A program made the position numbers and the translations under genes. From contig JASHQS010000260.1 of the NCBI GenBank assembly GCA_030038995.1, positions 327-64,326 of the forward strand: 64,000 bases of DNA, written 5' to 3'. This DNA is from Xanthobacteraceae bacterium. Lineage in GTDB: Bacteria > Pseudomonadota > Alphaproteobacteria > Rhizobiales > Xanthobacteraceae. A model generated the notes under the pieces. It saw only the letters and a program-made list of their open reading frames with translations. It made no database searches and was not told the DNA's origin. Below are positions 32,354 to 36,560 of this stretch, one piece after another (within the stretch, counting starts at the first letter, position 1; each line of letters begins with the position of its first letter).

Positions 32354-32399
32354 TGACCAGAACGAGTTTCAGGACTAACATGCATACAAAATACATATT
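32354..32399 (+). promoter_or_regulatory. putative sigma70-like promoter (TTGACC-16-TAACAT) overlapped by an NsrR-type 11-1-11 operator AACATGCATAC-A-AAATACATATT (32377-32399)
   Basis: Compared by eye with the enterobacterial NsrR consensus AAGATGCATTT-N-AAATGCATCTT: 8/11 and 9/11 matches. Lies immediately upstream of the oxidase-like operon. Confidence 0.4.
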
Positions 32400-32948
32400 A
32401 TGGGGGAGGTCGCCGTGATCCAGGACGTGGTGTGGAGCGTCTCGATCATCCTGATGGGGGCGCTTGCCCTGGTGTTCATCTGGGTGGCGACAGGGGCGAG
32501 CGTGGCAATCGCCAATTACGGTCCGGTGATCGATGCGGCCTATCGGCTGCGCGTCTGGCTGTTCGGGATCGCCCTTATCGTCCTGATCGGCACCAACTAT
32601 AAGACCGTCGGCGAACTGCCCTATATCAACACGCTGCCGCCTTTACCTGCCGCGGCCGTGCAACCCGTCCAGGTCGTTGGCCAGCAGTGGATGTGGACCA
32701 TCACGCCCAATACCTTCAAGGTCGGCCAGACCGCCGAGTTCCAGGTCACCAGCAAGGACGTGAACCACGGCTTCGGGCTCTATGATCCGGAGTTCCGCAT
32801 CGTCGCGGAGGTTCAGGCGATGCCCGGCTACACCAACGTACTGCGCTACCAGTTCACCGAGCCCGGCACCTATCAGGTGCTGTGCCTCGAATATTGCGGC
32901 GTCGCCCACCACGCGATGCAGGCGCAGATCAAAGTGACCGACCACTAA
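32400..32948 (+). CDS. heme-copper oxidase subunit II-like cupredoxin with an intact CuA site (NorS-like)
   Basis: Two N-terminal TM helices. VNHGFG ... CLEYCGVAHHAM equals H...CxExCxxxHxxM. The likely true start is GTG 32415, 5 nt after GGGGGAGG. Confidence 0.85.
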   Translation: MGEVAVIQDVVWSVSIILMGALALVFIWVATGASVAIANYGPVIDAAYRLRVWLFGIALIVLIGTNYKTVGELPYINTLPPLPAAAVQPVQVVGQQWMWTITPNTFKVGQTAEFQVTSKDVNHGFGLYDPEFRIVAEVQAMPGYTNVLRYQFTEPGTYQVLCLEYCGVAHHAMQAQIKVTDH

Positions 32949-32997: not shown

Positions 32998-34458
32998 ATG
33001 ACGATTGCAGCCACCGCAGGCCGCACCGCGATCAACCCGCGCGCAGCCGTACTCGCCTATCTCGCCGTCTCGGGGATCGTCCTTCTCTTGATGATGCTCC
33101 TGGGCCTGACCATGCGGCTCGCCCAGGCGCAATGGATCGACGTGTCGCCCGATTTCTTCTACGTGGTCATGACCATGCACGGCGCCGGCATGGTCGGCAT
33201 TGCCGGCTTGTGCAGCGCCGCGGTCATGTGGCACTTCGTGCGCCGCCACGTCCCGGTCTCGACCGCGGTCTTCCTCACCAATCTCGTGTTCTTTCTGATC
33301 GGCGCCGTGCTGATTCTCGGCGCTGGTTTCATCGGCGGATTCGGCGCCGCCTGGACGTTCCTGTTCCCGTTGCCGGCGCATTCCGGCGGGTTGTGGTCGG
33401 TGAATGCCGCGGCTGCCTATCTCGTCGGCTTGATTTTCATTGGTGTCGGATTCCTGTTGCTGCATCTCGACATCGCTCGCGGCATCCTCTCCGTCTACGG
33501 CGGGCTCGGCGCCGCGCTCGGGGTCAAGCAGGCGTTCGGTCTGGCGCACGGCGAGGAGGGACCGCCGCCGGCCGTCACCGCTTCGACGATGGCGCTGATC
33601 GCCAACATCCTTGGCATCTTGGTGGGCGCCGCGGTGCTCATTATCTCGCTGGTCAATTTGTACGTGCCGAGCTTCACCTTCAACGCGCTTGCGGCGAAGA
33701 ACCTGATCTATTATTTTGGGCATACCTTCATCAACGTCACGATCTACATGGCGGTGATCGCCGTCTACGAGATCCTGCCGATCTATGCCCATCGAGCCTG
33801 GAAGACAAACTGGGCATTCTATCTGGCGTGGGTCCTCTCGACCGTGTTCGTGCTCACCGTCTACACCCATCACCTGCTGATGGATTTCGCCATGCCGACT
33901 TGGACCCTGGTCGCCGGGCAGGTGATTTCATGGCTGAGCGGGCTGCCGGTGCTGCTGGTTACCGCCTTCGGAACGCTGACCGTCGTCTACCGTTCCGGGT
34001 TGCGCTGGAATCCGGCGGCAGCTTTGGTGTTCCTCGGCGTGGCCGGCTGGGCGATCGGGGTCATCCCGGCGATCGCTGACGGTACCATCGCCGTCAACAG
34101 CGTCATGCACAACACGCAATGGGTGCCGGGTCATTTCCATACCTATCTGCTGCTCGGCATGGTGGCGATGGTGCTCGGTTTCATGACCTATCTCACCAAC
34201 CCACAGTCACGCTACGGCGTTGCTTGGCTGGGCTATTGGCTCTATCTGCTCGGCGGCGTGGTGTTCGTGCTGGCCTTCCTGAGCGCCGGCAGCGCCAGCG
34301 TGCCGCGGCGCTACGCGGTGCACGTTGCACAATGGCTGCCCTACGACCGGATCGGATCGATCGGCGCCGCTTGCGCCATCGCCGGCGTCCTGATCTTGAT
34401 AGTGCGGTTCTTTGTCGGCATGCGCACCGCCGCAAGTGCGCAAGATCCAAGCGGATGA
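32998..34458 (+). CDS. heme-copper oxidoreductase subunit I, divergent B-like family lacking the HPxVY tyrosine (NorY-like)
   Basis: H61 (TMHGAG), H242 in GHTFIN, H291-H292 (THHLLMD), H379/H381 (GHFHTY). AGGGAGGA SD. Confidence 0.9.
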   Translation: MTIAATAGRTAINPRAAVLAYLAVSGIVLLLMMLLGLTMRLAQAQWIDVSPDFFYVVMTMHGAGMVGIAGLCSAAVMWHFVRRHVPVSTAVFLTNLVFFLIGAVLILGAGFIGGFGAAWTFLFPLPAHSGGLWSVNAAAAYLVGLIFIGVGFLLLHLDIARGILSVYGGLGAALGVKQAFGLAHGEEGPPPAVTASTMALIANILGILVGAAVLIISLVNLYVPSFTFNALAAKNLIYYFGHTFINVTIYMAVIAVYEILPIYAHRAWKTNWAFYLAWVLSTVFVLTVYTHHLLMDFAMPTWTLVAGQVISWLSGLPVLLVTAFGTLTVVYRSGLRWNPAAALVFLGVAGWAIGVIPAIADGTIAVNSVMHNTQWVPGHFHTYLLLGMVAMVLGFMTYLTNPQSRYGVAWLGYWLYLLGGVVFVLAFLSAGSASVPRRYAVHVAQWLPYDRIGSIGAACAIAGVLILIVRFFVGMRTAASAQDPSG

Positions 34459-35066
34459 CGCGCGGCTTTCCAGTTCTGCTCGCTTTCGTCCTGTCGATCG
34501 GGATTGGTACGCTCGCCTTCGAAACTGACGGTTTCCGCGTCGTCACCAGCGCCGGCGCGCGGCAATTGTCGATCGAACGCGCGCCGCAAGGCGTGCCGGA
34601 CGCCCAGCTCGTCGATCAGGACGGTACGCCGTTCACGTTGGCCGACTATAAGGGCCGGCCGGTGCTGATCGACTTCATATATACGCGCTGTCCGACGATC
34701 TGCACCGCGCTGGGCGACGATTTCGCGCGCCTGCGGCAGCTCATGGGCGGGACGCGAGCGCACGCTGCAATCGATCTCCTCAGTATCAGCTTCGATCCGA
34801 CCGACAACCGCGCGGCGCTGCGGCTTTACGGCGACCGCTTCGGCGCCAAGGCGCCGCGCTGGCGCATTGCCGCAGCCGCCGACCAGCGCGCGCGTGCCGC
34901 ATTGCTGCACAGCTTCGGCGTCGTGGTGATTCCCGACGGCCTGGGCGGCTTCATTCACAACGACGCCGTCTATGTGGTGGATGCGCAGGGCCGCCTCGCC
35001 CGCATTCTCGATTCCGATGCGCCGGACCGGCTTCTCGCTGCGGCCGTGCAGGTCGCGGCGCCATGA
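34455..35066 (+). CDS. senC: SCO1/SenC family copper chaperone
   Basis: N-terminal TM helix plus YTRCPTIC (CxxxC) thioredoxin-fold motif. ATGA overlap with subunit I. Confidence 0.85.
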   Translation: MTRGFPVLLAFVLSIGIGTLAFETDGFRVVTSAGARQLSIERAPQGVPDAQLVDQDGTPFTLADYKGRPVLIDFIYTRCPTICTALGDDFARLRQLMGGTRAHAAIDLLSISFDPTDNRAALRLYGDRFGAKAPRWRIAAAADQRARAALLHSFGVVVIPDGLGGFIHNDAVYVVDAQGRLARILDSDAPDRLLAAAVQVAAP

Positions 35067-35683
35067 ACGCCCGGCTTCTCGCAGCAGCCACGGGATCGTG
35101 GCTCGTTCTCTGGCTGCCGCCCATCCGCCACACGCTCGAAAGCGATATGGTGCTGCATATGGCGGTGCAGGTGCCGCTGCTGATCATGCTGGGCGTCCTC
35201 GTCGCCGTGGTCGCGCGCGACCGCGAGCCGCGTTGGCTCGCCGATGCCGACTGGCTCGGCATTCCAGGCATCGTGGCGGTCGTGCTGGGCACCTCATTCT
35301 GGATGCTGCCGCGGGCGCTGGATCAGGCGGTCTCCGATCCGTGGGCCGATCTCATCAAGTTCTTAAGCCTGCCGTTGCTGGTCGGCGTGCCCTTGGGCTT
35401 GAGCTGGCGGCGGATGCCGCCGCTCGGGCGCGCGTTCATCTGGGCCAACTTCATTCCCAAACTCGGCGCCATAGGCGGCCTGTATCTCGGCGCGCCGACG
35501 CGGCTTTGCGCCTATTACCGGCTTGACCAACAGGAACTCGCCGGCTGGACCCTGATCGCCATCGCGGTCGCGCTGGGAATGACGTGGTTCTTTGCCGCGT
35601 TTGTCGGCTGGACGCCGAGCTGCGCGAAACAATCCCCACGCCGCTCGGGCGGCTTTCTCATTGCGGCAGTGGGAGGGAATTGA
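35063..35683 (+). CDS. polytopic membrane protein, CtaG(caa3)-like assembly factor candidate (the 'orf1' position of norSY-senC-orf1 clusters)
   Basis: About 6 hydrophobic helices. The HMAVQVPLLIMLG motif is reminiscent of the Caa3_CtaG family. ATGA overlap with senC. Confidence 0.5.
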   Translation: MNARLLAAATGSWLVLWLPPIRHTLESDMVLHMAVQVPLLIMLGVLVAVVARDREPRWLADADWLGIPGIVAVVLGTSFWMLPRALDQAVSDPWADLIKFLSLPLLVGVPLGLSWRRMPPLGRAFIWANFIPKLGAIGGLYLGAPTRLCAYYRLDQQELAGWTLIAIAVALGMTWFFAAFVGWTPSCAKQSPRRSGGFLIAAVGGN

Positions 35684-35710
35684 CGCCACTCACTTCGGGA
35701 AAGGGAGTTG

Positions 35711-35986
35711 ATGATGAGCAACAGCAAGTACGGTTCGCAGACTATCTCACGACGCGCGGCGCTCACGGGTACCGCGCTCGGGTTTGTCTTGGCCGCCGAC
35801 GCGGCGATCACGTGCGCCAGCGCGCAGCAAAAGCTCTCGCAGGCGGCAGCCAAGTATCAGGACCAGCCGAAGGGACAGCAAAGCTGTGCGGTGTGCGCCA
35901 ACTTTCAACCCCCCAACGCCTGCAGGTTCGTGCAGGGGACGATCAGCCCTCAAGGCTGGTGCCTGCTGTTCGCGGCCAAGACCTGA
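35711..35986 (+). CDS. high-potential iron-sulfur protein (HiPIP) with a Tat signal
   Basis: SRRAALTG twin-arginine signal. CAVCANF...C.F..G.ISP.GWC matches the four-Cys HiPIP pattern. Only about 25 nt after the preceding gene. Confidence 0.8.
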   Translation: MMSNSKYGSQTISRRAALTGTALGFVLAADAAITCASAQQKLSQAAAKYQDQPKGQQSCAVCANFQPPNACRFVQGTISPQGWCLLFAAKT

Positions 35987-36107: not shown

Positions 36108-36560
36108 ATGCGGCTGACACTTCATACCGATTACGCCCTGCGTGTGCTCATTCATGTCGCCCTCGCTGGCGGCAAGTTGACAACGATCAACGATATTGCC
36201 GAAAGCTTCGACATTTCGAAGCAGCACTTGATGAAAGTCGTGAACGATCTCGGCCAAAGGGGCTATCTCGACACCGTTCGCGGCCGCAAGGGCGGTATCC
36301 GCCTGCGCCGTCAGCCGCGCGATATCAATATCGGCCGGGTGGTGCGGGAGACCGAGGACAAGCTCGGGGTTATCGGCTGCCTGGAGCAGCGCGGCTATTG
36401 CCGGATCGAGCGCGTCTGCGTGCTGCGCGGCGTGTTGCGTGAGGCGACCAACGCGTTCCTTGCGGTGTTGGATGCGCACACGCTCGCCGATCTGATCAAA
36501 CCGCGGAAGGCGTTGTCGTCGTTGCTGATGCTCGATCAGCACGCAGCGCGTACCCAGTAA
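36108..36560 (+). CDS. nsrR: Rrf2 family transcriptional regulator, NsrR-like
   Basis: MRLTLHTDYALRVLIHVA wHTH N-terminus. Three Cys in GCLEQRGYCRIERVCVL (cluster-ligand spacing as in NsrR/IscR). GGAGAAG SD. Confidence 0.8.
   Translation: MRLTLHTDYALRVLIHVALAGGKLTTINDIAESFDISKQHLMKVVNDLGQRGYLDTVRGRKGGIRLRRQPRDINIGRVVRETEDKLGVIGCLEQRGYCRIERVCVLRGVLREATNAFLAVLDAHTLADLIKPRKALSSLLMLDQHAARTQ

Follow-up and report, generated by a model that had tools for sequence, protein, structure and literature searches.

An asparagine in place of the cross-linked tyrosine in NorY, a likely sNOR-type heme-copper oxidoreductase of a Xanthobacteraceae bacterium

The window analyzed here is a 64-kb stretch of DNA (64,000 nucleotides of contig JASHQS010000260.1, assembly GCA_030038995.1) from a Xanthobacteraceae bacterium, and the gene of interest is the open reading frame (ORF) at 32998..34458, which encodes subunit I of a heme-copper oxidoreductase (HCO) and is called NorY below. 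The protein has an asparagine at the position of the tyrosine that, in B-family oxygen reductases, is cross-linked to a metal-ligand histidine. We found this Asn to be an invariant family signature rather than a mutation of NorY alone. We regard it as very likely that the ORF belongs to the sNOR family, because it shares with members of that family the same four-gene cluster, a clade with 100/100 support that includes Nitrosovibrio and Nitrobacter, and the same Asn. The account that best explains the evidence as a whole, and one that we hold with good confidence, is that NorY is the catalytic subunit of an sNOR-type HCO, a B-family derivative with a CuA subunit II, that the Asn is the signature of the family, and that the enzyme works by the mechanism proposed below. 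That its physiological activity is the reduction of nitric oxide (NO) is a separate claim, which we consider probable by analogy with related enzymes. All coordinates are positions in the window, and all features are on its forward (+) strand.

NorY and its active site

The NorY ORF encodes 486 residues with 12 transmembrane helices and an HCO fold akin to that of the B family. It matches Pfam COX1 (E=5.2e-44). An AlphaFold2 model (pLDDT 78, pTM 0.83) has 12 long helices and reached TM scores of 0.73-0.78 against HCO subunit I structures in Foldseek; together these confirm the HCO fold and the 12 transmembrane helices, and we use them for that alone. The codons CAT ACC TTC ATC AAC at 33721..33735 give H242-T-F-I-N246 inside YYFGHTFINVTIY; H242 is the first metal-ligand His, and N246 takes the place of the cross-linked Tyr. 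On helix VII, the motif Y289-T-H291-H292 (33862..33873) contains the histidine pair (CAT CAC, 33868-33873) after a non-essential aromatic residue, Y289 (TAC, 33862-33864). With H61, H379, and H381, all six canonical His are present in the translation. An earlier note on this DNA had read the H-T-F-I-N codons and listed the other ligands (H61, H291/H292, H379/H381) in the same way, and both readings were borne out by the DNA and the ORF. It also called the helix VI element a CuB motif. The metal-ligand His is real, but the name presumes copper and is thus provisional.

In a phmmer search of all PDB chains, the closest solved relative of NorY was subunit I of the Thermus thermophilus ba3 oxidase (E ~1e-7). 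The NorY segment 'fgHtfiN' lies opposite 'tgHpivY' of ba3 (H233...Y237), with N246 exactly on Tyr237. On either side, 'ytHH' lies opposite 'gfHH' (H282/H283), and the heme-ligand motif 'wvpgHfH' matches 'wvpgHfH'. Because these flanking histidine motifs align, the helix VI alignment is sound and the Asn does stand on the cross-link site; a faulty alignment here was one of the findings that the note had said would overturn its claim. Besides the six aligned His, the two proteins share a CuA subunit II and equivalents of the ba3 K-channel residues Y248 and T312. The differences are the cross-linked Tyr of ba3, in H233-P-I-V-Y237, against N246 in NorY, S309 against V318, and 13 transmembrane helices against 12. 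The H-P-x-V-Y motif that characterizes helix VI of B-family O2 reductases is therefore absent from NorY, which reads H-T-F-I-N.

Conservation of the asparagine among relatives

Two sets of relatives were placed in a joint alignment, one of 193 close relatives (at least 53% identity) and one of 26 distant Asn-type representatives. N246 and all six His were invariant across these 219 sequences. A sequencing error or chance is an unlikely source of the Asn, since it is present in 193/193 close and 26/26 distant relatives. A word-seeded search found 2,237 NorY homologues at E<=1e-10, and among the matches listed the motif FGH[VTI]F[IV]N was present in all 120 homologues (64-92% identity). Representatives at 50% identity were scanned exhaustively with HMMER, and GHxxxN was found in nearly all full-length matches above ~32% identity. 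The canonical GHP[VI]VY (including GHPVVY) was seen solely in matches at or below 32% identity. Two divergent matches have Ser at the Asn position, and both also lack heme or metal His. The Asn at H242...N246 is thus a trait of the family.

The Tyr-to-Asn replacement is also the published, defining hallmark of sNOR, and as far as the active site is concerned NorY offers nothing that had not been described before. The altered site that was noticed in the earlier note was correctly identified; it restates a known family signature, because the literature already describes this replacement in sNOR. Heylen and Keltjens reported that in the purified qCuANOR of Bacillus azotoformans (now bNOR) the cross-linking Tyr is replaced by Asn, that this Asn had been predicted by Hemp and Gennis in 2008, and that the related clusters of nitrifiers are named sNOR (PMC3475470).

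Placement of NorY in the sNOR family

We placed NorY by phylogeny, gene order, and residue traits. The tree was calculated by maximum likelihood (LG+C20 PMSF) with arbitrary rooting and without labelled bNOR, eNOR, or gNOR sequences. NorY fell in a clade with 100/100 support and a stem of 0.82, together with Nitrosovibrio sp. Nv6 (L080), Nitrobacter, and one Cytobacillus representative. Neither the Tyr-type oxidases nor the remaining Asn-type lineages fell within this sNOR clade. The closest relative of NorY, at 95% identity, comes from a Xanthobacteraceae metagenome-assembled genome (MAG).

The gene order agrees with this placement. In the nitrifier literature, norSY-senC-orf1 is the name of the cluster that encodes the heme-copper NO reductase sNOR (PMC4964001, PMC3764937). 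We scanned one genome per prokaryotic species and obtained 80 related loci; the order subunit II, subunit I, SCO, and orf1 was kept in 80/80 wherever the contig reaches. Identity to NorY is 77% for the protein of Nitrobacter sp. JJSN and 54% for that of the ammonia oxidizer Nitrosovibrio sp. Nv6, both of which have such a locus; further carriers are Thauera, Aromatoleum, Thiobacillus, Gallionellaceae, and Mariprofundaceae.

Murali et al. give as sNOR traits the loss of ba3 S309 and the presence of a Glu conserved elsewhere (PMC11214002). The S309 position is V318 in NorY, and E258, to judge from the sequence, is probably the sNOR-specific Glu. NorY and its locus thus show the six His, the Asn without a migrated Tyr, the CuA subunit II, the gene cluster, the clade, and the modified K-channel by which sNOR membership can be recognized. 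A comparison with sNOR candidates, which the note had proposed, places NorY inside sNOR by cluster, clade, and Asn.

Two observations concern the labels and the wider tree. Several relatives (P0030, P0048, P0072, P0271-P0279) carry the NCBI label 'cbb3-type cytochrome c oxidase subunit I', a generic misnomer that is misleading here. The Asn-type representatives P0151, P0152, and P0164 cluster with Tyr-type oxidases and not with other Asn-type lineages, a pattern that would fit repeated exchanges of Tyr and Asn as the B family radiated, on a tree with long branches and arbitrary rooting.

Of the known systems, the sNOR of ammonia- and nitrite-oxidizing bacteria (Stein et al., 2007; Hemp and Gennis, 2008; Murali et al., 2024) is the nearest. 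It has the same gene order and shares with NorY the H-x3-N site, the three metal-ligand His, a subunit I of ~480-490 residues with 12 transmembrane helices, the conserved Glu (E258), and the loss of the ba3 S309 equivalent. Unlike the nitrifiers, the host here is a Xanthobacteraceae-like heterotroph, represented by a MAG, with neither nirK/nirS nor an ammonia-oxidation context, and its locus has a HiPIP-like gene found in the closest relatives alone. In comparison with Nitrosovibrio, NorY has Tyr289 where the former has Phe, and it has an adjacent NsrR-like gene and operator that are absent there.

The bNOR/qCuANOR of B. azotoformans also has a CuA subunit II, a B-family-derived subunit I with the Tyr-to-Asn replacement, and linked genes for SenC and a membrane protein (PMC3475470). 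It differs in its subunit I of ~560 residues with 13 transmembrane helices, in a subunit II with one transmembrane helix, and in an extra 46-residue subunit, and it represents a separate, convergent lineage (PMC11214002). The cNOR and qNOR enzymes (NorB) share with NorY the HCO superfamily, the lack of a cross-linked Tyr, and the proposed reduction of NO, but they lack CuA and a conserved cytoplasmic proton channel. Their own marks, a Glu at H+4 as the fourth FeB ligand and a heme c or fused subunit, are not found in NorY, which has Asn and CuA instead.

Other tyrosines and the proton channel

The loss of the cross-linked Tyr raises the question of whether another Tyr takes its place. The earlier note had pointed to Y289, and this suggestion did not stand. 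Position 289 is occupied by Tyr in 167 of the 193 close relatives, by Phe in 25, and by Val in 1, and Phe289 extends across the betaproteobacterial clade of the tree (the ammonia oxidizer Nitrosovibrio Nv6, Thauera, Aromatoleum, and Thiobacillus). With Phe in 25/193, including this clade, Y289 is no family cofactor. Column 289 is Trp or Gly in the Tyr-type oxidases among the representatives; because genuine Tyr-type oxidases carry these residues there, the column seems to be a general site of aromatic packing or structure that is compatible with the presence of the true cofactor. In cbb3 oxidases, the cofactor Tyr sits six residues before the HH pair. The corresponding residue in NorY is V285, and Y289 lies two before the pair, so that a migrated cross-link Tyr at 289 was rejected on its position as well as on the substitutions. 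NorY departs from the C-family cbb3 enzymes in other ways too, as it has a CuA subunit II and its neighbors are SCO and orf1 rather than ccoOP.

Helix VI carries a set of conserved polar residues, Y250...Y257-E258 (33745..33771), one to three turns below N246. In the close relatives, Y250 and Y257 are each present in 193/193 and E258 in 192/193, and T322 is invariant. Y257 corresponds to K-channel Y248 of ba3 and T322 to T312. Y250 was considered as a substitute cofactor and rejected, as it lies eight residues (two helical turns, ~12 Å) below H242, beyond the reach of a cross-link; at this distance it is better read as a proton-path residue. These verdicts on Y289 and Y250 are based on conservation, helix geometry, and published modelling, in which Murali et al. 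saw no Tyr migration in these NOR families (PMC11214002).

The gene cluster and its neighbors

Subunit II (NorS, 32400..32948) has two N-terminal transmembrane helices and a cupredoxin domain whose CuA motif is complete and reads H-x38-C-x-E-x-C-G-x2-H-x2-M in the translation (CLEYCGVAHHAM). It matches Pfam COX2 (E=5.9e-7) and, under the cut-off, NCBIfam CoxB (E=3.2e-20). The ATG listed as its start (32400) abuts the NsrR-type operator described below. From the sequence, the true start is likely the GTG at 32415, which is 3' of the putative ribosome site GGGGGAGG.

Downstream of NorY, a SenC/SCO1 copper chaperone (34455..35066) has a CPTIC motif and matches Pfam SCO1-SenC (E=5.2e-15). Its ATG overlaps the NorY stop codon, and SenC is also directly 3' of subunit I in related loci. 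The fourth gene of norSY-senC-orf1, orf1 (35063..35683), encodes a polytopic membrane protein and has a stop/start overlap with senC. It had no Pfam or NCBIfam match, even at E=10, which gives no support to a CtaG-like identity, and it is kept at the same position in related loci with 32-95% identity.

The gene directly after orf1 (35708..35986) encodes a HiPIP/Iro-like protein with four Cys and a Tat signal (NCBIfam Iro E=2.9e-20, under the cut-off; Pfam HIPIP E=0.059). Among the related loci it is found solely in the two closest, L001 and L002. The protein is a possible periplasmic electron donor to CuA in the lineage of NorY, and because the gene is limited to these two loci, this is a local hypothesis and not a feature of the family. 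An Rrf2-family regulator, NsrR-like with a C-x6-C-x5-C motif, follows at 36108..36560 (Pfam Rrf2 E=1.1e-34).

An NsrR-type operator at sNOR operons

An NsrR-type operator, AACATGCATACAAAATACATATT, was found at 32377..32399, just 5' of the subunit II gene. Its core, ATGCAT-N5-ATACAT, fits exactly the consensus gATGyAT-N5-ATrCATc given by Rodionov et al. (PMC1274295). It is the sole perfect NsrR core in the window and in the 4.6-Mb, 65% GC genome, in which about 0.1 such cores would be expected from base composition. The Rrf2 protein scored about equally for NCBIfam NsrR (E=5.9e-38) and RirA (E=1.7e-36), under the cut-off for both; we call it NsrR-like rather than RirA from its context. The norSY operon thus has both features of an NsrR regulon member, an operator and an NsrR-type Rrf2 gene.

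The association is found beyond this genome. The upstream region was scannable in 77 loci, and in 37 of them the cluster has an Rrf2 gene no more than 5 kb away. Scored as at least 16/23 matches, an NsrR-type box was present 12-61 nt (mostly 20-50) 5' of the subunit II start in 32 of these 37 loci, compared with 7/40 loci without an adjacent Rrf2 gene and 3/214 random background segments. These sequence patterns support the prediction that, across many lineages, sNOR operons are under a repression that responds to NO or nitrite. We found no paper in the literature searched that states a link between NsrR boxes and sNOR operons, which is no proof of novelty. The operator and the adjacent NsrR-like gene provide independent regulatory support for an NO-linked role, and the conservation of the operator at sNOR operons is the most useful by-product of this analysis.

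We also observed that iron oxidizers (Mariprofundaceae and Gallionellaceae; L028, L030, L031, L034, L036) commonly carry sNOR clusters, in many cases together with an NsrR-type box and a divergent Rrf2 gene.

Host genome context

The host assembly is 90.7% complete. A scan with the generic COX1 model (PF00115) matched three subunit I genes, two of A type and NorY, and no cNOR or qNOR was seen among these three genes. A gene for a narG-type nitrate reductase is present (2163 bits), although its product may instead be a nitrite oxidoreductase like that of Nitrobacter. At this completeness, the genome had no nirK above the cut-off and no nosZ, and for nirS there were just weak beta-propeller matches to cytochrome d1, none above the cut-off. 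A reading of the host as a denitrifier was accordingly dropped in favor of NO detoxification. Because the host has narG and no detected NirK, NirS, NosZ, cNOR, or qNOR, it is more likely that the enzyme clears nitrite-derived NO, possibly in an energy-conserving way, than that it serves as a step of full denitrification.

Proposed mechanism and alternative explanations

In the mechanism that we propose, CuA would be the entry point for electrons, which in this host the adjacent HiPIP may supply, and the low-spin heme (H61/H381) would pass them to a binuclear site formed by the high-spin heme (H379) and a metal held by three His (H242, H291, H292). Lacking a redox-active His-Tyr cofactor, this site would be unable to give the fourth electron for the cleavage of O2. 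A two-electron reaction with NO would still be feasible, 2NO + 2e- + 2H+ -> N2O + H2O. Protons may arrive through a modified K-channel (Y250, Y257, E258, T322), which would permit charge separation. The operon would be under NsrR repression and would be de-repressed once NO damages the Fe-S cluster of NsrR. The physiological task would be mainly the removal of nitrite-derived NO, as detoxification that perhaps also conserves energy.

The literature proposes NO reduction for sNOR by the same argument (PMC11214002, PMC3475470). The earlier note had suggested altered chemistry, namely NO reduction, from the loss of the Tyr with retention of the His and CuA, and the sNOR placement of NorY lends support to this suggestion. 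On this analogy, NO reduction is the activity that we favor for NorSY, with less assurance than we attach to its family membership. The characterized HCO NO reductases use FeB, according to Murali et al. (PMC11214002). The SCO copper chaperone in the cluster may serve CuA alone.

Four points weigh against this view. The NO reductase role of sNOR is assigned by analogy with bNOR/eNOR and from indirect evidence in Nitrococcus (PMC6967387). The sNOR genes of Nitrosomonas europaea were up 2.7-10.8-fold under O2 limitation, and a high-affinity oxidase was proposed (PMC6967387). The Rrf2 protein falls under the NCBIfam cut-offs for NsrR and RirA alike. Finally, the host genome is without a dedicated NO-forming nitrite reductase, and we infer the source of the NO.

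The best-surviving alternative, which we nevertheless consider unlikely, is that NorSY is a high-affinity, NO-tolerant terminal O2 reductase of the B type that works without His-Tyr and for which NO reduction is a side reaction. It draws on the B-family kinship and the ba3 oxidase as top PDB match, on the presence of CuA and the SCO copper chaperone, and on the induction in N. europaea and the role proposed from it (PMC6967387). All characterized O2-reducing HCOs, however, need the cross-linked Tyr (PMC11214002), whereas NorY has an invariant Asn, and no conserved Tyr takes over in its relatives. In addition, the operon bears an NsrR-type operator and no obvious O2-type control, and the genome already has two A-type oxidases.

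Somewhat less credible is the idea that the Asn-type site carries out other chemistry (NO dismutation, nitrite reduction, or turnover of hydroxylamine or N2O) or acts as a sink or sensor for NO and not as a catalytic NO reductase. In its favor, NO dismutase and N2O reductase functions have been suggested for HCO relatives whose sites are altered (PMC11214002), and NsrR control by itself connects the operon just with stress from NO or nitrite. On the other side, the active-site residues of sNOR are those of bNOR (PMC11214002), which is a demonstrated NO reductase (PMC3475470), and the families proposed as NO dismutases and N2O reductases are kin to qNOR/cNOR and not to the sNOR clade. The last possibility, that Y289 or Y250 fills the cross-link role as in cbb3 and keeps an O2-reducing cofactor, is highly improbable: Y289 is close to H291/H292 in sequence and is Tyr in most close relatives, and Y250 is invariant among them, but the Phe289 substitutions, the Trp or Gly of the Tyr-type oxidases, V285 at the cbb3-equivalent position, the ~12 Å between Y250 and H242, and the published models without Tyr migration all speak against it.

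Implications for the sNOR family

NO reduction by an sNOR-type enzyme remains the reading that we prefer, and a broader version of it can be put forward, tentatively and with considerable doubt. Among Proteobacteria that are neither nitrifiers nor complete denitrifiers, sNOR could in many cases be a dedicated NsrR-controlled, copper-dependent (SCO-assembled), proton-channel-bearing, energy-conserving respiratory NO reductase that detoxifies NO and is, in this host, fed by HiPIP. Should the metal at the three-His/Asn site prove to be Cu and not Fe, sNOR would break the pattern of FeB for NO and CuB for O2 that the characterized HCOs follow. The conserved NsrR operator would be the first regulon-level evidence tying sNOR to NO, and the NsrR link offers a simple experimental handle in the form of NO-inducible expression.

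The value of this locus is as a clean example of sNOR in a soil bacterium of the Xanthobacteraceae type, whose genome has a nitrate reductase and no detected nitrite reductase, nitrous oxide reductase, or other NO reductase. As one of several NO reductase families predicted from sequence, sNOR may add to the emission of N2O from soil and to the tolerance of NO.

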